64,000 nt of DNA from Candidatus Thorarchaeota archaeon (GCA_020348985.1 CP070761.1:1553249-1617248), one strand, 5' to 3'; shown: positions 2,548 through 19,490, numbered from the stretch's first letter. Notes: a model not told the origin generated them from the sequence alone. Numbers and translations are program-made.

Positions 2548-2594
2548 TGAACAATGATAAGAAAGGTCCCAACATACATGTTCAATCTTGAACA
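2548..2594 (-). promoter_or_regulatory. 47-bp operator/promoter element, copy 1 (upstream of aminotransferase-peptidase)
   Basis: Minus strand reads TGTTCA agat TGAACA tgta TGTTGG gacctttcttatcat TGTTCA; same spacing as four other copies. Confidence 0.8.
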
Positions 2595-2744
2595 CGCGAT
2601 GATTGGGACATTCCTCGAAATCGAGTTTTGTGTTGGCTGAGTCAGTCATATCATTGCTCCATTCGTCCAAGGCGGCTCCTTCATTGAAACCCGTACCACA
2701 GAAGACATGTCTATGAGACCTGCCTGAAGGAAGCGCGTGTCTAT

Positions 2745-2791
2745 TGTTCAGCGTTGAACATGTATGTTGGGACCCTTCATATCATTGTTCA
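2745..2791 (+). promoter_or_regulatory. 47-bp operator/promoter element, copy 2 (upstream of second M28 peptidase)
   Basis: TGTTCA gcgt TGAACA tgta TGTTGG gacccttcatatcat TGTTCA; 42/47 identical to the reverse complement of 2548..2594. Confidence 0.8.
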
Positions 2792-2848
2792 CACCCTGTT
2801 GGATTTGCTCTACAGATCACGCGTTGAATTCTGAGGCAATGGTCGGCT

Positions 2849-4657
2849 TTGGAGATTGGTCTGATGAATGTTGAGAAGACTTCGATTGACGAAATCCGCA
2901 AAACGGTCGAATATCTCTGCGACCTCGGTCAGAAGGTTGCTGGCACTGAACCTGAAGTTCAGGCCGCTAATTATCTGCACGAGCGTTTGAGGGAATTTGG
3001 GTTTACACATGTAGAGATGCAGTCATTCGATGTTCATGGTTGGTATCCTCTTTCCTCCTCTGTAAGAATCACTCAACCAATCCAAAAGGAGATTGAATCT
3101 GCTCTGTTCCCACACTGCAAGTCTGAGGAAGTAGAGGGACGTCTTGTGGCTTTCAAGAAGGATGCTGATCCCACATTGTCTCGAAAAGGACTCATTGCCT
3201 ACTCGGAGTGGGGGCCAGATCCATACCTCAGCCCAAGAAGGACTTACTACCATGCAGTGAGACAAGGATATGACGGTCTCATTGTTGCTGCTCCTGATAA
3301 GGGTGACTTTCTCAAGGTTGTTGTACTTGCGATTGGAGGGCTGCTTGAGATACCCGTAGTCTGTATCACAAAAGAAGAAGGTGATTCTCTTTCATCTCTC
3401 ATTGAATCGGAAGAAGTCTCTGTGAACATCAAGACAGAAATCGAGACTTCAGACCAATCGCAGTCCTACAATGTAATGGCAACCCTGGAGGGTGATGGAA
3501 CAGCTGAGCATGAGGTTATAGTGGGTGCACACTACGACTCCTGGTTCCAGGGAGCAGGCGACAATTGCGCTCCTGCTGCCACAGTTCTTGAATTGGCCCG
3601 GCTATTTGGCAGACAGGCTCAGGCAGGAAGACCTCCTAGGAGAACAATCAGGTTTCTATTCTACGGCGCCGAAGAGAGCGGCACGAATGATTTCTACTTC
3701 TGGCTTAATGGGTCAAAGGCGTTTGTCAAAAGCAACCCAGAAATAGTTGCGAGGACTGCTGCTGTTCTCAGCTTGGACTCAACAGGATACACCAGCCCTG
3801 CTAAGGATTACATATACGCCACAGCCGATGTCTTTGAGTTCGCCAAATCCATTCAAGTTGAGCTTGAGCCGACTCTTGAGTTCCAGTACTTAGACCCTCC
3901 AAGTTATGGTAGCGATCATTGGTTCTTTGAACTATCGGGAATCCCTACGATCTATGGCGTGGCATTTCCAAGCCCCCTCTATCACACGCAAAAGGATGAC
4001 CCTGACCACCTTGATTTTCATGCAGTGCACTACTATGCCGAATACATGAAAGAGGCATTGTCATATCTATCTGAAGTTGAACTGCTTCCTATTGACATCT
4101 TCTTACCGTTAAAGAGGTTCGAGCAAATCTTCAAGAAGTATCAGAAGCTGGACGAGAATCCGTTTGACTTCAGTCCAATCCTGGCCAAATTGAGGGTTCT
4201 GATGAAACAGGAATCGAGTACAAGGAGACTTCTCAAAGCTGCATCCAAATCAAGTAATCCTGATACCATCTCGGAACTCAACCAGTTCCTGCTCCGGACA
4301 GCCAACAAGTACAATCAGACTATCGGCTGGATAACACGTCCTCACGAGACCTATGCTTCTAACTACTTGTGCCGACTGGAGATGATAGAAGATATCATCC
4401 ATCTCACAAACTCGGTCAAGAACCTACGCAATATACCCATCTCCAATTTCATGTCAGAAAGAGCAGCACTTTACGATAGCCAATCTGACAATGCTTACAA
4501 CTGGATCCGTATTCACGAGCCTCTTGCGAGAATAGAAGAAGAATGCACTAGGATTCGAAGGGAGATAGAAGAAGAGCTGAAGATGCTCTCATCGATGATT
4601 GACAGCATTTCTGAAGACATTGCAGGATTGACTGAAGAACAGGTATCTAGTCACTGA
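2849..4657 (+). CDS. M28 family Zn-peptidase with PA-like insert and helical C-terminal extension
   Basis: VGAHYD, GAGDN, FYGAEE, LSLDS, GSDHWFF, YHTQKDD; no signal peptide. Confidence 0.9.
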   Translation: MEIGLMNVEKTSIDEIRKTVEYLCDLGQKVAGTEPEVQAANYLHERLREFGFTHVEMQSFDVHGWYPLSSSVRITQPIQKEIESALFPHCKSEEVEGRLVAFKKDADPTLSRKGLIAYSEWGPDPYLSPRRTYYHAVRQGYDGLIVAAPDKGDFLKVVVLAIGGLLEIPVVCITKEEGDSLSSLIESEEVSVNIKTEIETSDQSQSYNVMATLEGDGTAEHEVIVGAHYDSWFQGAGDNCAPAATVLELARLFGRQAQAGRPPRRTIRFLFYGAEESGTNDFYFWLNGSKAFVKSNPEIVARTAAVLSLDSTGYTSPAKDYIYATADVFEFAKSIQVELEPTLEFQYLDPPSYGSDHWFFELSGIPTIYGVAFPSPLYHTQKDDPDHLDFHAVHYYAEYMKEALSYLSEVELLPIDIFLPLKRFEQIFKKYQKLDENPFDFSPILAKLRVLMKQESSTRRLLKAASKSSNPDTISELNQFLLRTANKYNQTIGWITRPHETYASNYLCRLEMIEDIIHLTNSVKNLRNIPISNFMSERAALYDSQSDNAYNWIRIHEPLARIEEECTRIRREIEEELKMLSSMIDSISEDIAGLTEEQVSSH

Positions 4658-4677
4658 GAATGAACAATCGAAAGGAA

Positions 4678-4724
4678 TGTTCATTCGTGTACACTGTTGT
4701 TGGGACTCTTATTATGGGTGTTCA
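4678..4724 (+). promoter_or_regulatory. 47-bp operator/promoter element, copy 3 (upstream of nitrilase-family gene)
   Basis: TGTTCA ttcg TGTACA ctgt TGTTGG gactcttattatggg TGTTCA; extra TGAACA at 4661..4666. Confidence 0.8.
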
Positions 4725-4776: not shown

Positions 4777-5679
4777 GTGAATCCAAGAATGGAAAGACGT
4801 CTGGGAGTAGCGGGACTCCAGCTTGAGAAAGATCCGTTTGATAGTGACATCAACTTCAAGAAACTGGAGTACATAACTCGGAAGGTCAAGTCTACATTTC
4901 CTTGGGTTGATTTGGTCTTTACTGGAGAACTATACCTCCAGCAATATGGAAGCAGCGATTGGAAAGAGTTTGCTCAACCAATCCCGAATGACATGACAGA
5001 CAGACTGTCTGAAATTGCTCGAGACAACGAGTGCTGGTTTGTACCAGGTTCTTTTTTGGAGAAGGAGAGTGACAAGATATTCAATACCGCACTCGTCTAT
5101 GATCCAAATGGAGACATAGTAGCCAAGTATAGAAAGCTCTATCCTTGGATGCCTTTTGAGGACACAAGTTATGGCACTAGCTTTGTTACATTCGACATTC
5201 CAGGTGTAACGAGGATTGGGATTGTCATATGCTATGATTTGTGGTTTCCTGAGGTTTTCAGGACACTAGCCTGGATGGGTGCCGAGGTAATATTGCAGCC
5301 ATCCGCTACCTATACGCCAGACCGCGCAGCGGAGCTCGTTTTGACTCCAGCTCAGGCAATCATGCATCAATGCTATGTTCTAAACTCGAACGTAATCAGT
5401 GCCATGGGGGGAGGTCTATCTATCTTTGCGGACCCCGAAGGCCGAATCCTACAACAAGTTGGCACACATGAGGAGATTATGACAGAGGTCATCGACTTGG
5501 ATAGGGTTGATTGGATTCGTCAGAATGGATCGTTTGGGATAACTCCCGTGTGGAAGAGCCTAAGAGATTCTCCACTCAGAATGAAGTATCCAGTTTACGA
5601 ACGCTTTGAAGAAGGTGCGATACTCAAGAAGCTAGGGGAAATGAAGGTGCAGAAAAGCATCCGTGAATGGACGGACTAG
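4777..5679 (+). CDS. Carbon-nitrogen hydrolase (nitrilase superfamily amidase)
   Basis: Glu-Lys-Cys triad motifs FTGELY, YRKLYP, VICYDLWFPE. Confidence 0.9.
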   Translation: MNPRMERRLGVAGLQLEKDPFDSDINFKKLEYITRKVKSTFPWVDLVFTGELYLQQYGSSDWKEFAQPIPNDMTDRLSEIARDNECWFVPGSFLEKESDKIFNTALVYDPNGDIVAKYRKLYPWMPFEDTSYGTSFVTFDIPGVTRIGIVICYDLWFPEVFRTLAWMGAEVILQPSATYTPDRAAELVLTPAQAIMHQCYVLNSNVISAMGGGLSIFADPEGRILQQVGTHEEIMTEVIDLDRVDWIRQNGSFGITPVWKSLRDSPLRMKYPVYERFEEGAILKKLGEMKVQKSIREWTD

Positions 5680-5684
5680 ATATC

Positions 5685-6707
5685 ATGAGAAACCCCACTC
5701 AGCAATTCTCTACACCTCTTGGAGTATTGTTCACATTGATTCTAATTCTAATGATTCTTGTATTTCCGCAGCCCAGCACAGGTCAATCTGACCAGAGTGA
5801 CTTGACTGGTATTCAGGTGGCGTTGTATACAGGGGGTCCAACAAGTGAATCCAGCCGCGAATCTCTTTCCAGAATGTTCTCATGGATGAACGCAAGTGTC
5901 ACTGTTCTTTCAGGAAGCGCGATAAGGGAAGGTGAACTCGAGAATTTTGATCTAGTTGTCATTCCTGGAGGATATGCACCTGACTTTATAGACGACATAG
6001 GTGCACGAGGGCTTGACAAGATCAGAGATTTCACTAGTAATGGAGGATCTTTCATCGGAGTATGTGCAGGTGCATACTTCGCTTCAGATTACATAATATG
6101 GCAAGGTATACCGACCGAGTATCGACTAGACCTGTTTGATGGTGCTGCTGTTGGTGCCATTGATCAAATCGCCCCTTGGCCAAACTTCCAGATGTGTACA
6201 ATAAGCATCAACCGCAATTCAATTCGGATTGACCTCTCTTCAGAACCGGCTAACCACACGATCATGTATTTCGGGGGCCCTTATTTCCTGCCAAGTGACC
6301 CCAGTGAAATCGAGATTCTGGCAACTTATGATATCAATGATGAAGCAGCCATGATATCTTTCGAGTATGGTCAAGGTAGAGTGTTTCTATCAGGTCCTCA
6401 TCCTGAATGGGAAGAAGATTCAGACCGAGACAATGCTAGTTGGCCTGATGATTTTGACGACAATGGCTCTGAGTGGAACCTAATGCTTAGCGTGTCACTC
6501 TGGCTAACAGAGAATGTGAACAAACCAAGCATTACCGAATTTCAACTGCCACACCTAGTTGGAGTGGCTTTCTTGGTCGTGGGAGCCATCGGCACTGTCG
6601 CCATATTCATACATGTGTTGAGGAATCGTGTCGACTATAGGAATAAATTCTATCAAAGAGGTCCAGAAACGGCAGATTTGCTGATGTTCACCTTTGTCCA
6701 CTCATGA
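5685..6707 (+). CDS. Membrane-anchored BPL_N-like class I glutamine amidotransferase-fold hydrolase
   Basis: N-terminal hydrophobic signal, VIPGG, GVCAGAY (nucleophile Cys), GPHPE, C-terminal TM. Start set at ATG 5685; the ORF track opens at 5667. Confidence 0.8.
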   Translation: MRNPTQQFSTPLGVLFTLILILMILVFPQPSTGQSDQSDLTGIQVALYTGGPTSESSRESLSRMFSWMNASVTVLSGSAIREGELENFDLVVIPGGYAPDFIDDIGARGLDKIRDFTSNGGSFIGVCAGAYFASDYIIWQGIPTEYRLDLFDGAAVGAIDQIAPWPNFQMCTISINRNSIRIDLSSEPANHTIMYFGGPYFLPSDPSEIEILATYDINDEAAMISFEYGQGRVFLSGPHPEWEEDSDRDNASWPDDFDDNGSEWNLMLSVSLWLTENVNKPSITEFQLPHLVGVAFLVVGAIGTVAIFIHVLRNRVDYRNKFYQRGPETADLLMFTFVHS

Positions 6708-6741
6708 ACAAAGATGTTGGTCGCATTTTAATCGTTGTACA
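6685..6741 (+). promoter_or_regulatory. 47-bp operator/promoter element, copy 4 (6695..6741) plus one extra upstream hexamer; upstream of the ABC operon
   Basis: TGTTCA cctt TGTCCA ctca TGAACA aaga TGTTGG tcgcattttaatcgt TGTACA; 10-bp hexamer period and the same 25-bp spacer to the last hexamer. Confidence 0.75.
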
Positions 6742-6771: not shown

Positions 6772-8715
6772 GTGATACAAGTGAGAAGACCGAATAACAT
6801 CATCCCGTTCCTTCTCATTGGTCTCTTCTTGGTGTCTATGGTTGCATTTGCGCCTGAAGCCTTTGCGCAAGACGACGGCGAGGACGCCGACGTCAGCATT
6901 GTCGTAGGTATGTTCGAGCAACCGGACTTCTTGGGACCAATGATGGCAGGCACCATAGCCGCCTGGGAGTTTCTCAACTGGATGTATGACCCCCTAGTCC
7001 GCTGGGGAGACGACTGGACTATAAAACCAGGACTGGCTGAGAGCTGGGAATGGGCTGACAACGGTACGCAATTGACATTGCATCTTGTGCAGAATGCAAC
7101 ATGGCATGATGGCACTCCCTTCACTTCAGCTGACGTCAACTTCACACTCTTTACTTGGACCTGGCTAGGTTGGTGGGTTGCGCAAACTCCGCGCATCGAC
7201 CACAGGAATATCAAGACCCCTGATGACCACACAGTCATTCTTAATTTTGTTGAGAGTGGCTATGAGAACATCTATGCGTGGTCTCCGGTGTCTCCATTCT
7301 TCTACTATCGTGAGAGCTACGACGGGACTCCCGTGGAGGTTAACCAGGAGTGTTTCCTCACAGGTCTGACATATGTCCCAATCATACCCAAGCATGAATG
7401 GGATCCCCTCATGTGGCATCACCCTGTTTGGGGACTGGAAGGTTCTGGATATGGTGTTACTCTAGAGAATGGCACCTGGGTATACTATGGATACTGGGAC
7501 TATCTCAATTGGGATGGAATCTCTTGGGGCACAATTCTACCTCCATATAACAGATCTGATATCGGAACTGGTCCATTCATCCTGAAGGAATACGAGGTGG
7601 GCGAATACGCGTATTTCGAGGGTAATGATGACTATCACTGGGGTGCACCTAATATCGACAACTTGACCGTCCTATTCTACACCTCAATCGAAACCATGAC
7701 ACAGGCCGTCAAGGCGGGTGAAATTGATTTCTGTGAGACCACCGCCAATTTCCTTGAGACTGGAGAATTTGGCCCTGAAGTGACTGTCAACGAGCAAAGC
7801 TCACTAGGCTGGGAAGCCTTGTTGATCAATCAGGATTGGATATACGCCAATACTAGTGATGCGTTTGCATTGAGGGAACCTGCAGTCAAGGTGGCAATCA
7901 ATCAAGCAGTCAACAAGTCGAACATAGCCAACATCGCTTATCTCGGACATGCCGTGCCTGCGGACTCTGTGATTCACAGTAAGCTGTATAAATGGTTCAA
8001 TGATGAGCTTGTGACACGCGATGTTGGAATCAGCGAGGCAGAAGCCACTCTCGAGGCTGATGGATGGACTCTGAACACTGAAGGAGTCTATGAAAAGACG
8101 CTAAACGGATCTGTGAAGACACTTGAGTTTACTCTCAAATTCATCACAGGCTCTCCGATTGATCTTAGCATAGCACAGCTAATTGAGGCTAACCTCGAAG
8201 ATGCCGGCTTTGACATAACGCTTCAGGCATTGGACGTCTCTACCTTCACAGCAGACCTATTCGCGTACTCCTTTGACCTAGCGATCTCGTTCTGGTCTCA
8301 AATCGGAGATCCGAACAGCATGGCACAATACATGACTTCAACCAGCTGGATCAACCCGACTGGACTTAACATCCCGAGAGTCGATGAAATCTTCTATGAG
8401 CAGCAGCTCGCTACGGACCTCTTCGAAAGACAGGATCTCATTAATGAGATGCAGCAACTTGTCTATGATGAAGCCAGCATTTGTGTCCTTGTTGAATATG
8501 ATGACATTGAACTCTACAGAAATGACCGATTTGTGTTCACACACACAGATTGGTTGAGCGGCATCCTGTCCATGTGGAACTGGGAATCCTGGCTTGGAGC
8601 CGAGCAAGTAGCACCGCCATCATTTCCAATTTCGATGGAGCTGGCAATTATCGCTGGGGCAGGAGTCATCGTTGTAGTGGTGCTCTTCGTGGTTTGGAGG
8701 TCGAAGAAGGGATAG
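6772..8715 (+). CDS. Peptide/nickel ABC transporter substrate-binding protein (family 5), C-terminally anchored
   Basis: Signal peptide, PGLAESWE, WHDGTPFTSADV, GTGPF, C-terminal TM followed by RSKKG. Confidence 0.92.
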   Translation: MIQVRRPNNIIPFLLIGLFLVSMVAFAPEAFAQDDGEDADVSIVVGMFEQPDFLGPMMAGTIAAWEFLNWMYDPLVRWGDDWTIKPGLAESWEWADNGTQLTLHLVQNATWHDGTPFTSADVNFTLFTWTWLGWWVAQTPRIDHRNIKTPDDHTVILNFVESGYENIYAWSPVSPFFYYRESYDGTPVEVNQECFLTGLTYVPIIPKHEWDPLMWHHPVWGLEGSGYGVTLENGTWVYYGYWDYLNWDGISWGTILPPYNRSDIGTGPFILKEYEVGEYAYFEGNDDYHWGAPNIDNLTVLFYTSIETMTQAVKAGEIDFCETTANFLETGEFGPEVTVNEQSSLGWEALLINQDWIYANTSDAFALREPAVKVAINQAVNKSNIANIAYLGHAVPADSVIHSKLYKWFNDELVTRDVGISEAEATLEADGWTLNTEGVYEKTLNGSVKTLEFTLKFITGSPIDLSIAQLIEANLEDAGFDITLQALDVSTFTADLFAYSFDLAISFWSQIGDPNSMAQYMTSTSWINPTGLNIPRVDEIFYEQQLATDLFERQDLINEMQQLVYDEASICVLVEYDDIELYRNDRFVFTHTDWLSGILSMWNWESWLGAEQVAPPSFPISMELAIIAGAGVIVVVVLFVVWRSKKG

Positions 8716-8734
8716 CAGTCTAAACAGCAGAAGA

Positions 8735-8778
8735 AGAACAGACAGTATTATCTGTCTGTTCTATCTATTCTTTTTCTT
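8735..8778 (+). terminator. Stem-loop after the SBP gene (partial terminator or mRNA stabiliser)
   Basis: Perfect 11-bp stem AGAACAGACAG-tattat-CTGTCTGTTCT (8735..8762) followed by a T-rich tract. Confidence 0.6.
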
Positions 8779-8813
8779 GTGAAGGTTGTCACGTATAGTT
8801 GAGATGACACAAA

Positions 8814-11546
8814 ATGGGATTGAGAGGAACTGTCGTCAAGAGAATAGTCCAAGCTATCATCACAATCTGGATTGCATTGTCGATTGACTTCATATTCTTC
8901 CATATGCTCCCTGGTAATCCTGCATCACTTCTAGCAAGAAATCCGAACATTGCTGAGATAGTGCAAGAGAGAGTCATTCAGGAGTTTGGGCTCGACCAGC
9001 CCATGCACATTCAATATGGTCTGTTCCTCGTAAACTTCATCTCTGGAAATCTTGGTGTTTCATTTCATTTCCTCGTTCCTGTGCAGGACGTAATATACTC
9101 TAGACTGATGAACACGGTACTCCTAATCTTGCCAGCCACAATTCTGTCCATAATAACTGGCATATGGATAGGCAAGAAAGCGGCGTGGAAAAGAGGAGAG
9201 AAACAGGACGTCGTCGGACTTTTCATATCGCTAGTGACCTATTCGATTCCATCATTTTGGCTGTCAATGTTCTTCATTATGATATTCTCGGTCAACCTAC
9301 ACCTGTTTCCATTGACACCATGGAACCCTGCCATAGGGCCCCAAGACACTTTGGGATTCTGGCTGAACTTGTTCTCTCACCTGGTCTTGCCGTGGGCAGT
9401 GCTGTGGATCGCTCTGATTGGTGTGTTTGCACTAATAATGAGAAATGCTCTCTTGGACGTACTGAGCGAGGACTACATGGTAACGGCGAAAGCTAAAGGA
9501 AGAACCGAGAAAGAACAGCTTGACAAGGAAGCTGTCCCAAATGCAATGATCCCAGTTGCGACCATAATTGCTCTCAATATAGGATTCTCAGTTGCTGGCG
9601 CCCTTCAGGTTGAGGTTGTTTTCTCCTACCCTGGAATTGGAAGACTTCTTTGGGACGGCATACTTTACAGGGACTATCCACTGCTGCAGGCTACTTTCTT
9701 CATGATTACGGTGGTAATTGTCGTTGCCAACCTAATAGCGGATTTCCTGTACTATGCCCTAGATCCCAGAATACGAGTAGGATCGGAGGTCGTCATATCA
9801 GAAGTGAAGAATGATTCTACCCTGAGAGGCTTCCTCCAACCTTTACGTCTACTGCTCATCTTTCTCATAATTCTGAATCTTGGAGCGACTATTGCGTATC
9901 CTGCTTTCGTTGGCTTAACCATAGGTCTCAGCGTATTGGCAATTTGTCTGCTGAGGTGGAAGCAGGTTGGGGAGTATATCCTGACACGTCTAAGATCCTA
10001 TTCTCCAGCGCATCTTGGATTCTTGTGGAGGAATTATCGATACAGACTCCTTACTCACCTGTCGCTTCTTGTCCTTTCAGTCAATCTGATGGTTTTCGTT
10101 GCCATTACGATGTCTGGTGTGTACGGTCTTGAGTGGACTCTTTCATGGGGGAGATCGTTCATAGGCATAGGAGGGTTTCCTCCTTCTATTGGTCTTGAAG
10201 GAGCAGCTCACTCAATCATGGTGGGATTATCTTCAATTGCGCATCCAAGCCTCACAATTGCAGCGCTTGCACTTTCTTTGATTGGCGCGATTATGGGGAG
10301 GAGAAGCAAGACAGAAGGGATGCTTAGGCAGTTCATAGCAACTCCAATGGGAAAGTTCGGAACCATGCTTGTTGCATTCTTTGTCGGTCTTGCCATCTAT
10401 GGTGACATACTTGCACCTTATGATCCAGACCAGCAACTCACTGGCCTGCCATACAGGCGGCCAAGCCCCTTGCCTCTTGATCAGCTAGTACTTGTGTCTG
10501 TAGGATTGGGTTTATTATGTCTTGGATTTGCTATCTGGATTATTGCGTACATTAGAAAGAAACCAAATACTCCAAAGCATTTCACCAAATTGCTTGTCAG
10601 CATAGTGATAGCATTCCTGGGGATTCTCTTAGGGTCTTATTCCTACAGCAAAAACCACCTGCCCGGGATTGTGACTTCTATTGCCATCTTTCTTGTCGGC
10701 GTCTTCCTGTTGTTGAAAAATCGTTCCTTTCCAAGGGATTACATCAGTGAACTGAGAGTTTCATATTTGTCATCGATTTCAGAGAGTTTGGTGACTATCG
10801 GTCTCATATCATTCATGTATTCAGCCTTGGTGGTCATAACTGGGAATCCGACCACATACCCAGGCTTTCACATCCTCGGTACAGACCAATTGGGTAGGGA
10901 TGTTTTCAGCCAGATGGTGATTGGAGTGAGAATAACTCTGATTATTGGCTTGGTTGCAACTGTAATCACAATGACCATAGGAACCATGATAGGACTAATT
11001 GCGGGATACTATGGAGGTCTGTCTGATTCGTTTCTCATGAGATTCACAGATGTCTTCTTTGTCATTCCGACCTTGGTGATAATGATCATACTCGCAGCCA
11101 TACTTCCACCCTCAATCTACACACTCATCTTTGTCATCGGAATATTCTCTTGGCCCTCCACAGCAAGAATTGTCCGTGGACAGGTCTTGACCATAAAGGA
11201 ACGCACCTACATTGAACGTGTGCGATCTGTTGGAGGTAGCGATGTCTATATCATGGCTAGACACGTTCTACCAGCCGTTGCCCCGCTTATCGTCGCAAAT
11301 ACAGTGCTTGTCACTGCCTATGCAATCCTTTCGGAGGTCGTCCTGGACTTCTTCGGGTTGGGCGACCCAAACATGATTAGCTGGGGAACAATGCTCTATC
11401 AGGCCTTTGGCGGGGGTGCTATGTCGAGCAATCTATGGTGGCTTGTGTTTCCACCAGGCATAGCAGTAATCGTGCTTCTGATGGGAGTATCAATGATGGG
11501 TTACGCAATGGATGAGATAGCCAATCCAAGACTGAGGAGGAGGTAA
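8814..11546 (+). CDS. Fused DppB+DppC-type ABC permease with additional TM inserts
   Basis: DppB half (PGNPA, FGLDQP, DYMVTAKAKG, DPRIR) and DppC half (LGTDQLGRDV, ARIVRGQ, RHVLP, NPRLRR). Confidence 0.9.
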   Translation: MGLRGTVVKRIVQAIITIWIALSIDFIFFHMLPGNPASLLARNPNIAEIVQERVIQEFGLDQPMHIQYGLFLVNFISGNLGVSFHFLVPVQDVIYSRLMNTVLLILPATILSIITGIWIGKKAAWKRGEKQDVVGLFISLVTYSIPSFWLSMFFIMIFSVNLHLFPLTPWNPAIGPQDTLGFWLNLFSHLVLPWAVLWIALIGVFALIMRNALLDVLSEDYMVTAKAKGRTEKEQLDKEAVPNAMIPVATIIALNIGFSVAGALQVEVVFSYPGIGRLLWDGILYRDYPLLQATFFMITVVIVVANLIADFLYYALDPRIRVGSEVVISEVKNDSTLRGFLQPLRLLLIFLIILNLGATIAYPAFVGLTIGLSVLAICLLRWKQVGEYILTRLRSYSPAHLGFLWRNYRYRLLTHLSLLVLSVNLMVFVAITMSGVYGLEWTLSWGRSFIGIGGFPPSIGLEGAAHSIMVGLSSIAHPSLTIAALALSLIGAIMGRRSKTEGMLRQFIATPMGKFGTMLVAFFVGLAIYGDILAPYDPDQQLTGLPYRRPSPLPLDQLVLVSVGLGLLCLGFAIWIIAYIRKKPNTPKHFTKLLVSIVIAFLGILLGSYSYSKNHLPGIVTSIAIFLVGVFLLLKNRSFPRDYISELRVSYLSSISESLVTIGLISFMYSALVVITGNPTTYPGFHILGTDQLGRDVFSQMVIGVRITLIIGLVATVITMTIGTMIGLIAGYYGGLSDSFLMRFTDVFFVIPTLVIMIILAAILPPSIYTLIFVIGIFSWPSTARIVRGQVLTIKERTYIERVRSVGGSDVYIMARHVLPAVAPLIVANTVLVTAYAILSEVVLDFFGLGDPNMISWGTMLYQAFGGGAMSSNLWWLVFPPGIAVIVLLMGVSMMGYAMDEIANPRLRRR

Positions 11547-11551
11547 GCAAC

Positions 11552-12511
11552 ATGACCGAGGACGTCTTGGAGATAAGAAACCTGTACATTTCGTATCAAA
11601 CTAAGCAAGGAAAAGTTAAGGCTGCCGAAGATGTCAGCTTCAAGATTCGCTGCGGCGACTTCGTTGGTCTTAGTGGGGAGAGTGGATGCGGAAAAACAAC
11701 GACTGCACTGGCGGTTATGCATCTTCTACCAAAAGAAGGGATCGTTGAAGGTGGTGAAATACTCTTCAACGGTAGAAACGTTCTCGAATACAAAGACCAA
11801 GAAGTCCGTGAATACTTGTGGCGCGATGTTTCCATGATCTTTCAAGGTGCCATGAATGCACTTAATCCGGTTCACAAGGTCATCGACCAAATGACAACTG
11901 CCATCCAGATTCACGAGGGTGTGTCTCATGAGGAAGCGAGAGAACGTTCTTTGGAGCTTATAGACTCTGTTGGAATCGATATTGCAAGAGCCGGTGGTTA
12001 CCCTCATGAAATGAGTGGGGGTATGAAACAAAGACTGATGATTGCTCTTGCACTAGTATGCCATCCATCTCTTGTCATAGCAGATGAGCCCACTACCGCA
12101 TTAGACGTAATGGTGCAAGCCCAGATTCTGGAGCTGCTGAAACAACTCAGAAACAGGACCAATCTATCCCTTCTTCTCATCACACATGATTTGTCAGTTA
12201 TTGCTGAAACCTGTGACCACACTATCATTATGTATGCGGGACGAATTGTCGAAATGGGGAGTACTTCGAAGATCTTCAGTGACCCAGAGCATCCCTATAC
12301 AATGAAGCTAATCTCGTCATTCCCAAGTATACTATCAGACAAGGGAATTGACTACATACCAGGAAATCCTCCTGACTTGATCAACCCTCCAAGTGGGTGT
12401 AGGTTCCATCCCAGATGTGATTTCACCATTAATCAATGTAAGGAGAATTCTCCACCGCTAGAAGAACAAGACAATCATCTTGTAGCCTGTTGGAGGAGAA
12501 GTGATATCTAG
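11552..12511 (+). CDS. dppD: Oligopeptide ABC transporter ATP-binding protein (DppD/OppD)
   Basis: GESGCGKT, HEMSGGMKQR, IADEPTTALD, C-terminal CRFHPRC...C...VAC. Confidence 0.92.
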   Translation: MTEDVLEIRNLYISYQTKQGKVKAAEDVSFKIRCGDFVGLSGESGCGKTTTALAVMHLLPKEGIVEGGEILFNGRNVLEYKDQEVREYLWRDVSMIFQGAMNALNPVHKVIDQMTTAIQIHEGVSHEEARERSLELIDSVGIDIARAGGYPHEMSGGMKQRLMIALALVCHPSLVIADEPTTALDVMVQAQILELLKQLRNRTNLSLLLITHDLSVIAETCDHTIIMYAGRIVEMGSTSKIFSDPEHPYTMKLISSFPSILSDKGIDYIPGNPPDLINPPSGCRFHPRCDFTINQCKENSPPLEEQDNHLVACWRRSDI

Positions 12512-13524
12512 TGTCAGATGTCATTCTCGAAGCCAAGGACATTAAGAAATACTTCACAGTAAGAAGTGGACTCCTCGCTACTATTCTTCTCAACAGGGAG
12601 CCAACTTACATTAAAGCTGTGGACGGGGTCGACCTCAGTATCCGAAGAGGTGAGGTCTTCGCCATTGCAGGAGAAAGTGGGTGTGGCAAGACTACAATGG
12701 CGAGGTTGATGGTCCAACTGGAGTTACTGACAGACGGCCAGATATTCTTCGAGGGAGAAGAGGTCTCGAAGATGAATCAATCTGAGTTCAAGCCATATCG
12801 GCGAAGAATACAGATGATCTTCCAGGACCCCTATGGGGCACTCAGTAATAACATGACAATCTCAGAAGTGATAGCAGAACCTCTTAGAATACACAAGATA
12901 TACAGTAGCCCTCAAGAAGAGGAAGAGGCTGTCAGGCAGGCAATGGAGGATGTGGGATTAAGACCAGCAGAGGATTTTGTGGACAGGTTGCCGCACGAAT
13001 TGAGTGGAGGTCAGAGACAACGAGTTGCAGTGGCGGCTGCCCTCGTACTAAAACCAGACCTGTTGATTGCAGATGAGCCCGTTTCAATGCTCGATGTCTC
13101 TATGCGTGGTCAGATTCTCAACCTTCTGTTGGAACTGAGAGACAAGAAGGGAATCACGATCGTGATCATAACACACAACCTTGCTGTTGCCAAGCAGATT
13201 TCTGATCGAATTGCAGTTGCGTATCTTGGGAAGATTGTTGAAATAGGTGACACCAGAACGATCATCGAGAATCCTAAGCATGCCTATACAAAGGCTCTAC
13301 TCTCAGTTGTTCCAGTGCCAGAAATGAACGTTGAGAGAGAGCGAATACTCCTTTCGGGCGAAACTCCGAATCCTGTGAATATCCCACCAGGATGCCGCTT
13401 TCACACTAGATGTCCATTCGGGTCGTCTCGTTGTGAAGTTGATGAACCAGAGCTACGTGAACTTCCTGATGGCAGAAGAGTCGCCTGCTATGATGCACAA
13501 GAAGAAGCGATCTGCCATAGCTAG
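12511..13524 (+). CDS. dppF: Oligopeptide ABC transporter ATP-binding protein (DppF/OppF)
   Basis: GESGCGKT, HELSGGQRQR, ADEPVSMLD, CRFHTRCP. Confidence 0.92.
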   Translation: MSDVILEAKDIKKYFTVRSGLLATILLNREPTYIKAVDGVDLSIRRGEVFAIAGESGCGKTTMARLMVQLELLTDGQIFFEGEEVSKMNQSEFKPYRRRIQMIFQDPYGALSNNMTISEVIAEPLRIHKIYSSPQEEEEAVRQAMEDVGLRPAEDFVDRLPHELSGGQRQRVAVAAALVLKPDLLIADEPVSMLDVSMRGQILNLLLELRDKKGITIVIITHNLAVAKQISDRIAVAYLGKIVEIGDTRTIIENPKHAYTKALLSVVPVPEMNVERERILLSGETPNPVNIPPGCRFHTRCPFGSSRCEVDEPELRELPDGRRVACYDAQEEAICHS

Positions 13525-14658
13525 CTACTTGCTGGGGTACTTGCGTCCAACCTCTCGCGCTTTCGTGAAATGCAATACTGCCGATGCCACACCCTCTTCC
13601 CTGGATATCTCCTCTATCTTTTCGAGGGCTAGGAGTGATCTGAGTAATTTCATGGAAAGGTCCTTCATAGGAGCCGTCCTACTTCTGATTTGAACACGCA
13701 TCATATCTCCGTCGGCAGAGACATTGGACCATTCCCAAAGCCCTAGTGTTCCAATCACTGAGACTGTGCGGTCTACTAGATTGGAGACACTAGACGTGTC
13801 CTTCTCACCATTGATGACGTCGAGTTGTTGTGCATGCTCTCTGATGCTAACAAGCGTCTTGTCACTAATCGGATCCTCTATCGTGTTGGTGACAAGCCAA
13901 TCTAGAAGAGAAGGACTTAGTGTGACGACACCTCGATGACCTGTCTGTGAAGAAAGCCGCTCTCTTCGGTCTCGCCACAACGTGATGACACGTCTGTCTC
14001 TTTCAATCTTCACCTGATTGTACTCATTCTGGTGGATCCACGTGACACTTATCTTGTTGTCAGCTACGATCTCTACATCAAAAGTGAACCCAGCTTCCTC
14101 CCATCCTGCAATCAGCATTATGACAAGTAGCTCAGGTAGCCCCTGAAACATACCTGTTGTGAGGAGAAGTCTCTTCCTCTCGGATGAACATTCAACTGAC
14201 CTAAGGACTCCAACATCTCTAAGGAAGTTCGCATTGGCAACAAGCGATTCGTAATTGTTCTCCCAGAACTCCTCTGGAATTACACCCACACTCATGAGCA
14301 GCTTGGTTTGCTCAATCCCAATCTTCTTGGCCTCCAATGTTAAGTCTCTAACGGAATGGGTGCCTAGACCGCAGCCAGCGCACAGCGATAATAGATTTGA
14401 GCTGACTAGTATCATGTCAGCGGATTGAATGAGGGAATTGTGTAGGCGTGATGTCTTGATGGCATCGCACTCTTCACAATTGGGGAGATCTCTTCTTGTG
14501 CTGTAATGCTTCACAGCTTCTTCAAGAACATCATTGATGCGTCTCGAGTCACTTGAGAGTTCCTTCAAAAGATTCTTGGTGCTGGCGGAGACTGTAGTAT
14601 GTAGATGCACTCTCGGTTCACGAGACCCATTATAGTCATGTGAGTCCATAACATCCAT
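13525..14658 (-). CDS. Putative transcriptional regulator: N-terminal ribbon-helix-helix-like domain, CxxC, two repeated putative sensor domains
   Basis: RVHLHTTV-SASTKNLLKELS-RRINDVLEEAVKHY fits a beta-alpha-alpha RHH pattern. Start set at ATG 14658 (14649 is an alternative) because the upstream ORF extension overlaps motif hexamers. Confidence 0.6.
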   Translation of the reverse strand: MDVMDSHDYNGSREPRVHLHTTVSASTKNLLKELSSDSRRINDVLEEAVKHYSTRRDLPNCEECDAIKTSRLHNSLIQSADMILVSSNLLSLCAGCGLGTHSVRDLTLEAKKIGIEQTKLLMSVGVIPEEFWENNYESLVANANFLRDVGVLRSVECSSERKRLLLTTGMFQGLPELLVIMLIAGWEEAGFTFDVEIVADNKISVTWIHQNEYNQVKIERDRRVITLWRDRRERLSSQTGHRGVVTLSPSLLDWLVTNTIEDPISDKTLVSIREHAQQLDVINGEKDTSSVSNLVDRTVSVIGTLGLWEWSNVSADGDMMRVQIRSRTAPMKDLSMKLLRSLLALEKIEEISREEGVASAVLHFTKAREVGRKYPSK

Positions 14659-14797
14659 GAACAAACCCACCGGTTCGTGTTCAAGACATCTATTCCAGTT
14701 ATAGATTCGTGAACATAAGCATTCCGAAGCAGTGAGGTTTGTTGAATCTTTGAACAAGGTCATGACGAAGTGTCTTTCTCATGTGCACCCTTGTTCA
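14658..14797 (-). promoter_or_regulatory. Cluster of TGWWCA-type hexamers upstream of the candidate regulator
   Basis: Hexamers start at 14658, 14678, 14710, 14751, 14782 (TGTGCA) and 14792. 14710/14751/14792 are 41 bp apart, the first-to-last hexamer spacing of the 47-bp element. Confidence 0.6.
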
Positions 14798-16417
14798 TTC
14801 GTGAAGGTGGTCGCCCATGAGAGTCCCACGAATGAAGAATTTCTCAAATTCACCGTATGAGGCTAATTCTACATATCGAGCAGAATCCGCAATTTCTTCT
14901 GCTATCTCCCTATGAGCTATTGACAACAGCATCTTCTTTGCACCGTCTCCGGCTGCGTTGCCAACTTGAACAACACGATTCGGATCAATGGCGGGCAAGA
15001 GTCCAATGGAGACTGCGCTTTCGGGATTGATGTATGTCCCAAATGCTCCAGCTAGATAGACAGCGTCGATTTCCGTCAATGCAACATCTGCCTCTCTAAT
15101 GAGGATGTGAGTGCCTGCTAGGATTGCGCTCTTGGCAAGTTGGACTTGACGAACATCCTTTTGCGTGAACAATATTCGAGACTCAGAGTCATGCTCCCCC
15201 TTCTCGACAAGGACATAGGACGCCACCGACGGACCTACATGAATGATTCGATTCGACTCCTGCAATCTTCCGTCTTCGTCAAGCAAGCTATGCTTGAGTA
15301 GTTCTGAGACAATATCTACTATTCCCGATCCGCATATTCCTCTGGGTACACCGCCGCCGATTACTTCAATCTCGGCAGGCTGAGAAGGATCATCGATTGT
15401 AACATGTTCAATCGCACCTTCCTGACCTCTCATTCCCTGAGATATCGTAGCCCCTTCGAATGCAGATCCGGCTGCAGCTGAACAGCAAAAGAGCTCACCG
15501 TATTTGGACAACACAATCTCACCATTGGTTCCAATATCAGCACCGAGAACAACATCTTCAGACTGGTCGAGCCTCTGCGAAAGAATGAACGCTACGGTGT
15601 CCCCTCCCACAAATCCAGCGATATTCGGTGAGCAATAGACTTGGGCGGCCGAAACTTGGCCAAGCCCAACAACCTTTGAATCGGCGTTGAATGAATGTTT
15701 CATTGCTGGTTCATATGGGGCAAAGCCTAATGACGAAGTGTCTATTCCCAAGAATAGGTGATGCATTGCTGTGTTACCAACTACGGAGATTCGGCCAACT
15801 GCTTCAGAGGAAACCTGGCCTGCTTCGCATACTTCCTTAATCAGTCCGTCGATCGCTTGAACGACCAAGGACTGAAGACTGGCTGCACCCTCATCATTCT
15901 GTAAGGCATGAGTGATTCTTGTGACTACGTCCTCACCATATTCAATTTGAGGGTTGAGCATAGAAGCGCATCCAATCTGTGCCCCGTCCTTCAAGCCAAG
16001 AAGATAGGCAACAATAGTAGTAGTGCCAAGGTCAATGGCAACGCCATATTCACCGTCGATGGGCGCGTCAATAGCAATCTCATCGGTTGTGATTAGATGT
16101 TCAGCAAGAATCTTACTTCGACCTTCAACACGTGTCAGAATCGCTCTACAATGGGCCTTTGCTGTGTGTTCACAAGCAAGACGAACTCCGCGTCTGATAT
16201 CTTCGCCTTTGAGGTGAAGCGAGTCGATCTTGGTCGGCGATGGTTTGGGCTTAAGTATGATTCTACACTTGCCACATGTTCCTTTGCCTCCGCACTCAGC
16301 CGGTATATGCAAACCCATTCTTCTTGCTGCCTCTAGAAAAGAAGTATTGGAGTCCAAAAGGATTCGTAGCCCTGAAGGCTCGAATACTACTAACCACCTC
16401 TCTTCCAAGAATGTCAC
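14795..16417 (-). CDS. ATP-dependent reductive activator of corrinoid proteins (RACo/DUF4445 ASKHA type with N-terminal 2Fe-2S)
   Basis: CGGKGTCGKC...RLAC ferredoxin domain; DLGTTT, NPQIEYGEDV, GFVGGD, DIGTNGE, AFEG, GICGSG, LAGAFG, GNAAG. Confidence 0.9.
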   Translation of the reverse strand: MTFLEERWLVVFEPSGLRILLDSNTSFLEAARRMGLHIPAECGGKGTCGKCRIILKPKPSPTKIDSLHLKGEDIRRGVRLACEHTAKAHCRAILTRVEGRSKILAEHLITTDEIAIDAPIDGEYGVAIDLGTTTIVAYLLGLKDGAQIGCASMLNPQIEYGEDVVTRITHALQNDEGAASLQSLVVQAIDGLIKEVCEAGQVSSEAVGRISVVGNTAMHHLFLGIDTSSLGFAPYEPAMKHSFNADSKVVGLGQVSAAQVYCSPNIAGFVGGDTVAFILSQRLDQSEDVVLGADIGTNGEIVLSKYGELFCCSAAAGSAFEGATISQGMRGQEGAIEHVTIDDPSQPAEIEVIGGGVPRGICGSGIVDIVSELLKHSLLDEDGRLQESNRIIHVGPSVASYVLVEKGEHDSESRILFTQKDVRQVQLAKSAILAGTHILIREADVALTEIDAVYLAGAFGTYINPESAVSIGLLPAIDPNRVVQVGNAAGDGAKKMLLSIAHREIAEEIADSARYVELASYGEFEKFFIRGTLMGDHLHE

Positions 16418-17323
16418 CTAACTTATCCTGTAACGAGGATGTGTCTTGTCAATGGGGGTTCGAGTTTCAAGCAAAATACCCGATAGCGCTACATCAATCA
16501 TTGCAATAGACGGGTAGACAATTGGTGCATCTTGTACCGGGCCGTACAGGACAAAGTCAGCCCCTAAGACAACAGGCATCAGATTGGATCCGACGAAAGC
16601 AGGCTTTTTCGCTTCATCTCCAAACTTCGGAACCAACCCCCTCCAAGTACTAACAGCATTGTGTGCGCCGCAGCCAACAGGGTATCCTTGTTTTTCTTTG
16701 ATAGTTTGTAGTGCTTTACAAGCTAGGCCTAGAGTGAGTAGGTCTGCAACACCTGTGTCGATGAGCAAGTTTGTGAAACCAGAATTCTTTGCTTTTTTTA
16801 TTAGGGAATCAGCCAATTCAACTCTCTTCGTGGCTGATGCCATGGCTTCTGACGAGAAAGTGAGAAGCACTACATTCTTGAGGCCAGTATCCTGGAACCG
16901 GGAATAGACTTCGCCTGAAGATTCAGGAGTCAGGGAATTCAAAACCACTCTATGAAGAAGACCAGCATCGCTTGCAGCATTCACACCGGCAAGATTGACT
17001 GCTGTTTGGTCTGATCCATCAATCATGAGTGGAGAATCTGTCATGTCGGCTAGCAATCGGATGTATCTGTCGGCTGCCTCTGGAGATATCGCAACGACAT
17101 CTAACATGCTGGGCAATCCGGTCTTTTCAGAAGTCTCCTCCAAATTCTGGAGGACATCCTCTGTTCCCGCTACATCAATTCTGCCCGATTTGGGATCTAA
17201 AACGAGTCTGTCACCTGTGTAGAAAATTGACCCTACTAGGACTGTGGGATTGACACCAGGTTGTCCACCTATCTTTACTCCACCGATTTCAAGTATCTTT
17301 TGTTCGACTTGATATTCGAACAA
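16418..17323 (-). CDS. mtrH: MtrH-like methyl-corrinoid:tetrahydropterin methyltransferase
   Basis: IGGQPG-NPTVLVGSIFY, LIDTGV, GCGAHNA, GADFVLYGP. TTG start at 17323 follows GGAGGTG (ORF track start 17362). No other mtr subunits nearby. Confidence 0.85.
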   Translation of the reverse strand: MFEYQVEQKILEIGGVKIGGQPGVNPTVLVGSIFYTGDRLVLDPKSGRIDVAGTEDVLQNLEETSEKTGLPSMLDVVAISPEAADRYIRLLADMTDSPLMIDGSDQTAVNLAGVNAASDAGLLHRVVLNSLTPESSGEVYSRFQDTGLKNVVLLTFSSEAMASATKRVELADSLIKKAKNSGFTNLLIDTGVADLLTLGLACKALQTIKEKQGYPVGCGAHNAVSTWRGLVPKFGDEAKKPAFVGSNLMPVVLGADFVLYGPVQDAPIVYPSIAMIDVALSGILLETRTPIDKTHPRYRIS

Positions 17324-17372
17324 GGGTCTCACCTCCAATAATGAGCGTCGACGCGACCCCACGTTAGATTGA

Positions 17373-18752
17373 TTAATAGAGGAATCTCACACCGAGGTCC
17401 GCAACCTCTTGCTTCACTCTTTCATATATCTCGTAGCACTCCTTTGAAGGTCTACCGGTCACAGGATCACAGCACTCTTGGAACGTTTTGCCCCTTGGTG
17501 GGTCACCAACCCTGTCAGCAAATCTCGGGATGATTCTCTTTACAATCTCGTTTGCATCATCCCTTGTGATACCAGCAGACGCGTAGGCAACCTCCGAGGC
17601 GAACATTGGCTCAATTGGTGTCAGATAATCTGTGTACTTCCCTCTGGCAACGCCTCCGGTCTCAATTGACCCTCCTGAAGATATTCCGCCAATGAATTCT
17701 GCAGCAAACTCGTAAAGCACCATCTCGGTACAGGGGCCCGCAGCAGTGTAGTTGTAATATAGCGCTGGCACCTGTGTATTCCTTGACACAGCCTGCAGGT
17801 ATTGGCTGGCCACCCAGATTAGCTCTGGTGTGGAACTTGAGGTATACTTGAGGTGGATCGGGAAGCACAGTGTCCAGGATGCGCCAAGGGTCATTATTGC
17901 CATTATGTGAAAAGCCGTGGACGTGATTGCTGTTCCTTCTGCTCCCCCTGCAAAGCCACCATAGATGGGACCATGAATCCCTGCGATTGGAACATTCAGT
18001 GATTGTAGAAGTGCTGCACGATTCAGCAAATCAAAATCTGTCTTTAGCTCAGCAAGCTGAGCAATCATGTATCCGTCTGTCTTCCGTAGTCCAAAATCGG
18101 GATGCAAACCTGAAGCAAGGGCGATAGCGGACTCTGCGGTCCCAATAGCATTCATGATGGGTAGTCCAGGTCGCCCAGCTCTTCTCAAAGCCTCCCGCCC
18201 CAGAACCACAGTTCGTATACTACCCTCGATTTCGAGTGGTGATTTCGCACGAATGCTCATATCGCCGACATTAGCCAGGCAGGGAGTGGTAATCGCGTTT
18301 GCAATCGGTATCAGTTCTGCATAGTTTTGAACAAGTTTCATGAACACGTTCTCACTAGACACAGTTACCCCCCCGGCCCCTGCGAAAATCCATGGTTTCT
18401 CCTTTGACTCTGGCTTCCTTGGTAGCAGAGTTCGTTGTTCCATACCCTCGCCCAGAAGTGCATGGTCAAAGGATGTGTTGATGCTGTCACGAACCTCCTT
18501 CTCTGTGAACGAGATTACTCGTTCAGTGTCCTTGTTGAATACTCCGATCTCGACGATAAGGTCAAAAGCTGCTTTGAATACTGAATCTGCTAGCCCGTCA
18601 TCAGAGGAAATCACGATGTTAGGATCGTACGTGACATCATATTCTTTAACAAGCTCTTGGACTCGCGGAGCAAAGATTCGCAAATCGTAGTCCTTTTCCA
18701 AGCAGGGCTTTCCTTCAAGAGACCTTCGAGTAATCTCCAGTATGTTCAGCAT
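17373..18752 (-). CDS. mtmB: Monomethylamine methyltransferase MtmB family, pyrrolysine-free homolog
   Basis: DDGLADSVFKA, DTERVISF, AGRPG, ELKTD, PIYGGFAGG, AGPCTEM, GKTFQECCD; uninterrupted 459-aa ORF. Confidence 0.88.
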   Translation of the reverse strand: MLNILEITRRSLEGKPCLEKDYDLRIFAPRVQELVKEYDVTYDPNIVISSDDGLADSVFKAAFDLIVEIGVFNKDTERVISFTEKEVRDSINTSFDHALLGEGMEQRTLLPRKPESKEKPWIFAGAGGVTVSSENVFMKLVQNYAELIPIANAITTPCLANVGDMSIRAKSPLEIEGSIRTVVLGREALRRAGRPGLPIMNAIGTAESAIALASGLHPDFGLRKTDGYMIAQLAELKTDFDLLNRAALLQSLNVPIAGIHGPIYGGFAGGAEGTAITSTAFHIMAIMTLGASWTLCFPIHLKYTSSSTPELIWVASQYLQAVSRNTQVPALYYNYTAAGPCTEMVLYEFAAEFIGGISSGGSIETGGVARGKYTDYLTPIEPMFASEVAYASAGITRDDANEIVKRIIPRFADRVGDPPRGKTFQECCDPVTGRPSKECYEIYERVKQEVADLGVRFLY

Positions 18753-18756
18753 TCAC

Positions 18757-19404
18757 TCATCCCTTCCTTTCCTCAATCAGTCTAATTGCTTCACGCACAG
18801 CCTCCGGCGCAGTCTCGGCAAAGCCATCAGCACCAATTTCATCAGCCCATTCCTGGTTAGTTGGGCCGCCGCCAACCATGACAATGAACCTGTCGCGTTT
18901 TCCAGTCTCCTGCAGATAGTCGATGACATCCTTTTGGCCGCCAAGAGTAGAAGTCATGAGAGCTGAGATTGCGATTATGTCGGCATCGATTTTCTCCGCC
19001 TCTTCCACGAACCTTGATGTTGCAACATCGCAGCCGAGGTCGGTCACCGCAAAACCATTAGCAACAAGCATGGCCTTGAGGATGTTCTTCCCAATCTCGT
19101 GAATATCACCACGAACCGTTCCAACCACGACTCTTCCTGCTACAGGTACTTCTTCTTTTGGCATCTTTGGTAGAATCACATCCAAAGCCGCCATCATAGC
19201 TTCTCCGGAAAGCATGAGATTTGTGAGGAATATCTCCATTCGCTCGAACTGCTCACCAACATGTTTGGCCCCTTCGGAAACACCCTTCTCAAGAGCCACC
19301 AAAGGACTGACGCCAGCTTCAAGAGCAGCTTCTGCGTATTGGGTGACTTTCTCAGCATCTCCTTCAATAATGGCTTCTTTCAGTTTGGCAATGTCTTCTG
19401 ACAT
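18757..19404 (-). CDS. Cognate corrinoid protein (MtmC/MttC-like)
   Basis: B12 cap (AIIEGDAE), GDIHEIGKN (DxHxxG), SALMTST, MVGGGP; start set at ATG 19404. Confidence 0.92.
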   Translation of the reverse strand: MSEDIAKLKEAIIEGDAEKVTQYAEAALEAGVSPLVALEKGVSEGAKHVGEQFERMEIFLTNLMLSGEAMMAALDVILPKMPKEEVPVAGRVVVGTVRGDIHEIGKNILKAMLVANGFAVTDLGCDVATSRFVEEAEKIDADIIAISALMTSTLGGQKDVIDYLQETGKRDRFIVMVGGGPTNQEWADEIGADGFAETAPEAVREAIRLIEERKG

Positions 19405-19443
19405 GTTCCTGACATCCATCGAGATAATGAGTAGACATCTGGA

Positions 19444-19490
19444 TGAACAGACACAAAAGCACTCCCAACACCTGTGAACACTCTTGAACA
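19444..19490 (-). promoter_or_regulatory. 47-bp operator/promoter element, copy 5 (upstream of the methyltransferase operon)
   Basis: Minus strand reads TGTTCA agag TGTTCA cagg TGTTGG gagtgcttttgtgtc TGTTCA. Confidence 0.8.

Follow-up and report, generated by a model that had tools for sequence, protein, structure and literature searches.

A 64,000-nt stretch of the genome of a Candidatus Thorarchaeota archaeon (GCA_020348985.1, CP070761.1:1553249-1617248), hereafter referred to as the window, carries an island of five gene units, each headed by a copy of a 47-bp DNA element. The window was taken from a single-contig genome of 3,157,342 bp (labelled G000). Unit 1 (2..2458, − strand) encodes a class-III aminotransferase (1184-2458) and an M28 peptidase, M28a (2-1174), which runs off the window. 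Unit 2 (2864..4657, +) encodes a second M28 peptidase, M28b, and unit 3 (4789..6707, +) a carbon-nitrogen (CN) hydrolase and a BPL_N/DJ-1-like protein. Unit 4 (6772..13524, +) specifies an Opp/Dpp-type ATP-binding cassette (ABC) importer, which comprises a substrate-binding protein (SBP) of the SBP_bac_5 family, a fused double permease, and two ATPases. Unit 5 (14795..19404, −) encodes a corrinoid protein (Cor), an MtmB-like methyltransferase, an MtrH-like protein, and a RACo activator. Between units 4 and 5 lies the gene of a 377-amino-acid protein (13525..14658, −), our candidate for the regulator of the island, which is preceded by a separate array of hexamer boxes (14658..14797, −).

Copy 1 of the element (2548..2594, −) heads the aminotransferase/M28a unit, with its ATG at 2458, and copy 2 (2745..2791, +) heads the M28b gene (ATG at 2864). 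Copy 3 (4678..4724, +) precedes the CN-hydrolase/BPL_N-like unit (ATG at 4789), copy 4 (6695..6741, +) the importer genes, and copy 5 (19444..19490, −) the corrinoid protein unit, in which the ATG at 19404 is located 39 nt downstream. At four of the five sites, the element is followed by the start-codon ATG after 39-89 nt; the start of the binding-protein gene of the importer is uncertain, with a GTG ~30 nt downstream of the element. Copy 4 overlaps the final codons of the preceding open reading frame (ORF), and an extra in-phase TGTTCA at 6685, 10 bp upstream, extends it to an array spanning 6685..6741 (+).

The original prediction, made from the sequence of the window, had reported five sense-oriented copies heading five units, and all five match its pattern with 0 mismatches, against a chance expectation of 0.01 matches in the window as estimated from shuffled sequences. 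It had also reported no other complete copy in the window. We found none, even at 3 mismatches, and a scan of the whole genome that tolerated as many as 4 mismatches over the 24 specified positions detected no site beyond the five. When 15 sites from relatives' genomes were used to build a position weight matrix, the five sites received 36.7-57.1 bits, whereas no other position of this genome exceeded −0.4 bits. The motif is confined to five gene fronts genome-wide rather than scattered. TGWWCA hexamers occur at 12.3 per kb in the intergenic DNA of the island versus 1.23 per kb genome-wide, a ten-fold enrichment.

The anatomy of the element was derived from an alignment of 20 copies. Four hexamers, TGTWCA, TGWWCA, TGTTNG, and TGTWCA, are centered at 0, 10, 20, and 41 bp, in agreement with the claimed 10-10-21 bp spacing, and thus face one side of the DNA helix. 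The box columns carry ~1.6-1.8 bits of information, and the spacers and flanks ~0. The conserved sequence consists of the four hexamers and a T/A tract with the consensus TT.WWATC at element positions 31-39; this tract had been noted in the window copies, in the spacer before box 4, and it is conserved in the alignment. Three boxes lie upstream of the tract and one immediately downstream. Among the 20 sites, box 1 reads TGTTCA (13), TGTACA (5), or TGTCCA (2), and box 4 reads TGTTCA (15) or TGTACA (5). Box 3 is TGTTGG in 12 sites and otherwise TGTT followed by two variable bases. Box 2 is TGAACA as frequently as TGTTCA (8 sites each, with TGTACA in the remaining 4), indicating that it is indifferent to orientation. 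A variant in front of the SBP gene of one relative, G028 (L027, G028:C90; 11600-11670, −), has the form TGTTCA-N14-TGAACA-N4-TGTTCG-N15-TGTACA, in which box 1 is displaced one helical turn upstream (centers at 0, 20, 30, and 51), and it was missed by the fixed-spacing pattern search. Together with the extra in-phase box of the SBP copy in the window, this variant indicates that helical phase is kept rather than strict contiguity.

We then examined the conservation of the element in relatives, using 60 genomes in addition to its own and a pattern that allowed up to 3 mismatches. The search returned 23 matches in 7 of the 61 genomes, versus one match in total for a reversed-pattern control. The six element-bearing relatives belong to the same family and to five genera, and carry 2-5 copies each. 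Their matches cluster on the contigs that carry the island, save one 3-mismatch match on another contig of G005. The loci contain the same gene set in shuffled order and orientation; the units for the aminotransferase, M28b, SBP, and Cor invariably have the element in front. Each of these promoter classes has its own spacer signature, conserved between genomes. We conclude that all four classes are old and that functional constraint, not recent duplication, underlies their common box layout.

A relaxed exact pattern was also scanned over 185,579 species-representative genomes (596 Gb). It yielded 32 stretches, of which 31 come from metagenome-assembled genomes (MAGs) labelled as Thorarchaeota, Promethearchaeota, or Hermodarchaeota; the single bacterial one is from a member of the Chitinophagaceae. 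By a hand estimate for both strands with equal base frequencies, ~0.3 chance matches would be expected. The 39 distinct Asgard matches derive from 18 Thorarchaeota-type MAGs; the sequences recovered include a closed chromosome, CP070658.1. Conservation upstream of orthologues, on which the predicted regulon depends, was observed throughout: all 39 matches are in sense orientation and directly upstream of a Cor (15), aminotransferase (13), M28b (7), or SBP (4) gene, at a distance of 30-137 nt. In the Cor class, the coding alignment obtained by blastx starts 38-44 nt after the element at 14 of the 15 sites in relatives, and the ATG is found 39-41 nt after it in the four genomes examined. The confinement of the motif to gene fronts and its conservation before orthologues both support the proposal that the five units form a single regulon. 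One cognate regulator for all five is plausible, and a candidate is now in hand.

Two side observations were made at the loci of the relatives. The BPL_N/DJ-1-like gene (L025-L030) is transcribed away from the aminotransferase or M28b unit and lacks a sense element of its own; boxes 1-2 of the neighbor lie ~55-95 nt upstream of its start, and one operator may be shared by divergent promoters at these fronts. In L025 (G022:C40; 11367-13309 and 14460-16370), the SBP and M28b genes are each split into two ORFs with intact upstream elements, which could be due to frameshifts, pseudogenes, or assembly errors.

Copies 1 and 2 in the window form a 50-nt inverted repeat with 88% complementarity, and the spacer of copy 3 resembles the aminotransferase-class element of the relatives. 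These features point to local duplication and reshuffling of promoters, in which coverage of the regulon would have been kept. The inverted repeat, and the rearrangement and inversion of element-bounded modules between genomes, could also be read as signs that the repeats are recombination or mobile-element sites, that is, cassette boundaries that drive module shuffling. We consider this very improbable, because the copies, all sense-oriented, keep a short and constant distance to the start codon that follows (~38-44 nt for nearly all Cor genes), and no copy was found at the 3' ends of the modules. The loci share no conserved gene for a recombinase or transposase. Moreover, the promoter classes have different internal spacers and retain only the phased boxes in common. 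Any recombination between copies may be incidental. The sense orientation would also suit an element that acts as RNA, in the form of a 5'-leader structure or a riboswitch-like signal, and boxes 1 and 2 could form a 6-bp hairpin in some copies. However, these boxes are a perfect inverted repeat in only 5 of the 20 sites, with no compensatory changes, and the hairpin was rejected on this ground. The window region 1-24000 has no match in Rfam, and both the 10-bp phasing and the variant displaced by one turn are features of a DNA face. An RNA role therefore has hardly any credibility.

The conserved T/A tract resembles TATA boxes of tRNA promoters in the same genome, such as CTTATATC, TTAATATC, and TTTAAATC. 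A TATA matrix was derived from the upstream regions of 20 tRNA genes; it proved too weak for confirmation of the tract, although its best position falls at 31-35 in 10 of the 20 element sites. We take the tract as a likely but weak candidate for the TATA box. If it is the TATA box, box 3 would overlap the position of the TFB-recognition element (BRE), box 4 would be located at about −20 to −15, and the transcription start site (TSS) would lie ~15 nt beyond box 4.

The same hexamers recur in front of the gene of the 377-amino-acid protein. Five TGTTCA/TGAACA boxes are arranged there 41, 41, 32, and 20 bp apart, each distance being close to a whole number of helical turns, and the last box contains the A of the start codon. 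Six genomes share the arrangement TTATGTTCAC - 25/26 bp - TGAACA - 14/15 bp - TGTKCATG, in which ATG is the start codon. In the alignment of these genomes, the three proximal boxes are invariant blocks amid variable sequence, and the window has two more boxes further upstream than this shared core. The boxes overlap a TTAT tract as well as the start codon. We propose that this differently spaced but still phased array is the autoregulatory site of the candidate regulator.

The gene itself is conserved in the islands without an assigned function and is usually convergent to its neighbors. Searches with whole proteins detected no Pfam family at E values up to 10. Its homologues number 34 among 5.8 billion clustered proteins, all from Thorarchaeota/Promethearchaeota (Asgard) MAGs and all annotated as hypothetical. 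The most conserved part is the N-terminal 57 residues. In the alignments, an invariant strand (R-V-H-L-H-T-T) precedes two helices that are joined by a G-E-S-G-R-I-N turn; a CxxC pair, also invariant, comes next. The strand thus alternates polar and hydrophobic residues, and helix 2 is preceded by a turn of the G-x-S/T type, which together we take to be the signature of the ribbon-helix-helix (RHH) fold. In the predicted model of residues 8-64, an extended segment is followed by helices at 18-27 and 34-47. About 45 of its 50 best structural matches (VIA) are RHH DNA-binding domains, including CdbA, SvtR, PutA-RHH, omega, NikR, Arc, and AmrZ, with Z-scores of 3.0-5.0 and coverage of the whole domain. 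RHH entries also rank top in Foldseek, with TM scores of 0.57-0.64 but E > 1. We therefore assign the N-terminus, with modest confidence and at the fold level only, as an RHH-like DNA-binding domain, since the individual scores are weak. The homodimer prediction for this domain (0.39 versus a mark of 0.42) was used neither for nor against the assignment.

The remainder of the protein was analyzed using a whole-protein model (predicted local distance difference test (pLDDT) score of 75), for which Foldseek returned no match at E ≤ 0.001 and de novo designs in the top rows. Residues ~80-215 resemble an H-NOX/Bet3-like fold (BcsD, Z 7.8; Bet3, Z 7.5; Thorarchaeota TRAPPC3, Z 6.9; H-NOX, Z 6.4-6.6); these matches span 115-130 residues, are all under the caution line of Z 8, and have no counterpart in Pfam. 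Residues 288-370 form a ferredoxin-like domain with Z 9-10 to generic ferredoxin-like folds. Structural neighbors in the Atlas include HNOB proteins and helix-turn-helix regulators with a similar domain. The middle domain and these neighbors are suggestive, and only suggestive, of a sensor-like function. An internal duplication of two alpha/beta halves was also considered; it is unsupported at the sequence-profile level (hhalign of 84-210 versus 245-370, probability 0.2). A distant relative of the regulator with 20% identity (E 3.7e-6) was detected at G047:C33:20940-21686 (−), inside a 650-residue frame of another Asgard family, and may represent a longer paralogous architecture. The nearest Atlas structural clusters also have ~650 residues.

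The regulator gene and the element have similar distributions. The gene is present in six of the seven element-bearing genomes and, barring the weak 20%-identity match, in none of the 53 others; in the seventh, the island is on an 11.5-kb contig that ends inside the island. It is also found on 11 of the 8-kb stretches recovered by the species-genome scan. The whole island, with element, regulator, and MtmB-like gene, was not found in the two genomes of the same genus, G001 and G002 (98% and 88% complete), although five other genera of the family carry it. Within the family, orthologues of the MtmB-like protein (70-78% identity) occur only in element-bearing genomes, and none was found without the element among the 36 family genomes searched; more distant homologues (31-35% identity) are present in five genomes of other Asgard families. 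This patchy shared distribution indicates that the island, the element, and the regulator are an accessory package, and suggests horizontal transfer or repeated loss.

As the RHH assignment, and with it DNA binding by the 377-residue protein, is made at the level of a predicted fold, the element might instead be bound by a regulator encoded elsewhere, and the protein might be merely a regulated gene product, for example a sensor or a scaffold. This seems improbable to us. The islands of the seven genomes revealed no further conserved gene of a regulatory kind, and the element and the protein share a narrow and patchy distribution. An unlinked factor would have to be co-transferred or already present in five genera, yet would be useless in the sister genomes.

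We consider it likely that the element combines an operator with a core promoter, serves a local regulon, and is bound by an autoregulated RHH regulator that most likely acts as a repressor. RHH repressors such as Arc, CopG, omega, MetJ, and NikR are dimers that bind short, often pseudo-symmetric subsites cooperatively and in tandem arrays, and autoregulation is common among them. The following scheme of binding and its stoichiometry, of the direction of regulation, and of TSS and effector is our inference. Each hexamer would be the subsite for one dimer of the 377-residue protein. Several dimers would bind cooperatively on one DNA face, coating the promoter from about −60 to −15 and bracketing the TATA/BRE region. 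Without an effector, the bound regulator would block TBP, TFB, and RNA polymerase. The effector would be the imported substrate or an intermediate of a peptide/methylamine pathway; it would release the regulator and switch on all five units together. The regulator would control itself through the phased array whose last box overlaps its own start codon.

Alternatively, the RHH protein could act mainly as an activator, in which binding to boxes 1-3 recruits TBP and TFB, as for Ptr2 or TFB-RF1; box 4 would then modulate the response or allow a ligand to switch the protein between activating and repressing modes. In favor of this reading, three boxes out of four precede the tract, the tract is weak in comparison with the TATA boxes of the tRNA promoters, and the sequence directly upstream of it is box 3, not a clear purine-rich BRE. 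Nevertheless, an invariant box 4 is positioned between the TATA-like tract and the expected TSS, where archaeal regulators typically repress (MDR1, LrpA, Phr, TrmB). In addition, the boxes over the TTAT tract and start codon of the regulator's own gene fit autorepression, and most RHH regulators are repressors. On these three grounds, repression is clearly favored over activation, and we regard a predominantly activating role as rather unlikely.

Several observations count against the model of an RHH repressor bound to a composite operator and promoter. At the sequence level, no Pfam RHH family was found for 25 N-terminal domains, again at E values up to 10, and no PDB sequence-profile match for the 377-residue protein. 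The N-terminal model has a mean pLDDT of 68, and its individual structural Z-scores are low. The co-occurrence of regulator and element is confounded, as the island is gained or missing in its entirety. TGAACA never occurs as box 1 or box 4, and recognition is therefore not simply two-fold symmetric. The promoter geometry is a presumed one: the T/A tract scores 1.5-6.4 bits with the TATA matrix, not above random windows (95th percentile of 7.5). A weak TATA/BRE with three upstream boxes would suit an activator as well, and this weakness keeps an activating or dual mode within consideration.

The gene content of the island suggests that the substrate of the regulated pathway is a peptide-like or N-methylated amine compound, as it combines an Opp-type importer, M28 peptidases, a CN-hydrolase, an omega-aminotransferase, and a pyrrolysine-free MtmB-like methyltransferase with its corrinoid protein, MtrH, and RACo. 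The MtmB-family homologue (17373-18752, −) is an uninterrupted ORF of 459 residues; with no in-frame stop, it has no pyrrolysine codon. The ABC permease (8814-11546, +) is a single 910-residue fusion with two BPD_transp_1 domains (OppB-OppC type), and the fusion is kept in all related islands (889-918 residues). The islands of relatives additionally encode M20 peptidases, a polysaccharide deacetylase, and a short-chain dehydrogenase/reductase. Just upstream of element copy 5 lies a gene for an aldehyde:ferredoxin oxidoreductase (AFOR; 19541-21376, −), which has no element and lies outside the islands of the relatives; the regulon therefore spans about 2-19.5 kb of the window, excluding AFOR. 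An adjoining 657-residue ORF (21724-23697, +) has no Pfam match. Separately, the 3.16-Mb single contig includes 13,100 N, and ARAGORN predicted no more than 21 tRNA genes on it; two tRNA-Ala genes (at 2218040 and 2456458) have identical 70-nt upstream regions. Either the assembly is scaffolded or incomplete, or many tRNAs are intron-bearing.

Asgard archaea are the closest prokaryotic relatives of eukaryotes; most are uncultured, and to our knowledge experiments have revealed almost nothing about how they control the transcription of specific genes. The regulator and operator described here would be among the first concrete pairs proposed for this group. The regulon can be tested entirely in vitro, with a 47-bp DNA carrying four defined boxes and a recombinantly expressible candidate of 377 residues. 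The second, differently spaced autoregulatory operator provides an internal control, and ~40 natural sequence variants are available. The regulon also places an unusual pyrrolysine-free MtmB-type module in a single co-regulated pathway with peptidases, an aminotransferase, and an Opp-type importer. The effector should be the methylated substrate or its product, which narrows the search for that substrate. A bolder version, to which we give slightly less than an even chance, holds that Thorarchaeota-specific one-component regulators, combining an RHH domain, CxxC, an H-NOX/V4R-like sensor, and a ferredoxin-like domain, assemble a multi-dimer complex on phased hexamers that sandwich the TATA box, and thereby switch a horizontally mobile peptide/N-methylamine island as a unit. 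If this is true, the phase-tolerant spacing (10, 20/21, 31/32, 41, and 51 bp) would imply wrapping or looping of the DNA by an oligomer, dual repressor/activator behavior would be possible, and the system would be the first defined triad of transcription factor, operator, and regulon in Asgard archaea.

Among known systems, the element is most readily compared with the operators of Arc, CopG, omega, and MetJ, which consist of short (6-8 bp), partly pseudo-symmetric subsites in direct or inverted repeats. Their dimers bind cooperatively on one DNA face, the operators overlap promoters, and autoregulation is common; the same is proposed here, and these proteins are matched by the model of the candidate's N-terminal domain. 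In contrast, they are bacterial, plasmid, or phage proteins of 45-105 residues without sensor domains, whereas the candidate is a 377-residue archaeal chromosomal one-component regulator. The operator here brackets an archaeal TATA-like tract with a 10-10-21 bp spacing, and there is no sequence-level family match. NikR, one of the structural matches (Z 4.4), has an RHH head fused to a ligand-sensing and oligomerization domain, as is proposed here. NikR half-sites, GTATGA-N16-TCATAC, are about two helical turns apart, and the N16 gap resembles the N15 between boxes 3 and 4. Unlike the tetrameric NikR, to which it has no sequence similarity, the candidate has a putative H-NOX/Bet3-like middle domain (Z 6.4-7.8) and would use at least four subsites per promoter, compared with two for NikR. 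The ACT-like C-domain of NikR, which mediates tetramerization and binds nickel through His/Cys ligands, is not among the listed matches of the ferredoxin-like C-terminus (288-370), and the resemblance is one of layout only. Nickel is unlikely as the effector, given the nature of the regulated genes.

The proposed logic agrees with that of the archaeal regulators MDR1, LrpA, Phr, TrmB/TrmBL1, SurR, Ptr2, and TFB-RF1, for which sites over or downstream of BRE/TATA repress and upstream sites activate, and whose targets are local regulons for sugars, amino acids, or metals, ABC transporter included. However, those proteins are of the winged helix-turn-helix, Lrp, or TrmB type and recognize other motifs (for example, TATCAC-N5-GTGATA in the case of TrmBL1), and we know of none that is an RHH protein or has been characterized in Asgard archaea. 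Full-text literature searches combining Thorarchaeota with ribbon-helix-helix, or Asgard with promoter, TATA, or TSS, found nothing relevant. SvtR (SIRV1), ORF56 (pRN1), and E73 (SSV-RH) are archaeal RHH DNA binders, as the candidate would be according to its model, and SvtR ranks third among the structural matches of that model (Z 4.8; rmsd 2.3 over 45 residues). Those proteins differ in having ~55 residues and no sensor domains, in belonging to mobile elements, and in not being known to control catabolic operons. The candidate is not a sequence-level member of a described RHH family; what is new is its predicted domain combination, the archaeal TATA-bracketing geometry of its proposed operator, and its restriction to Asgard archaea.

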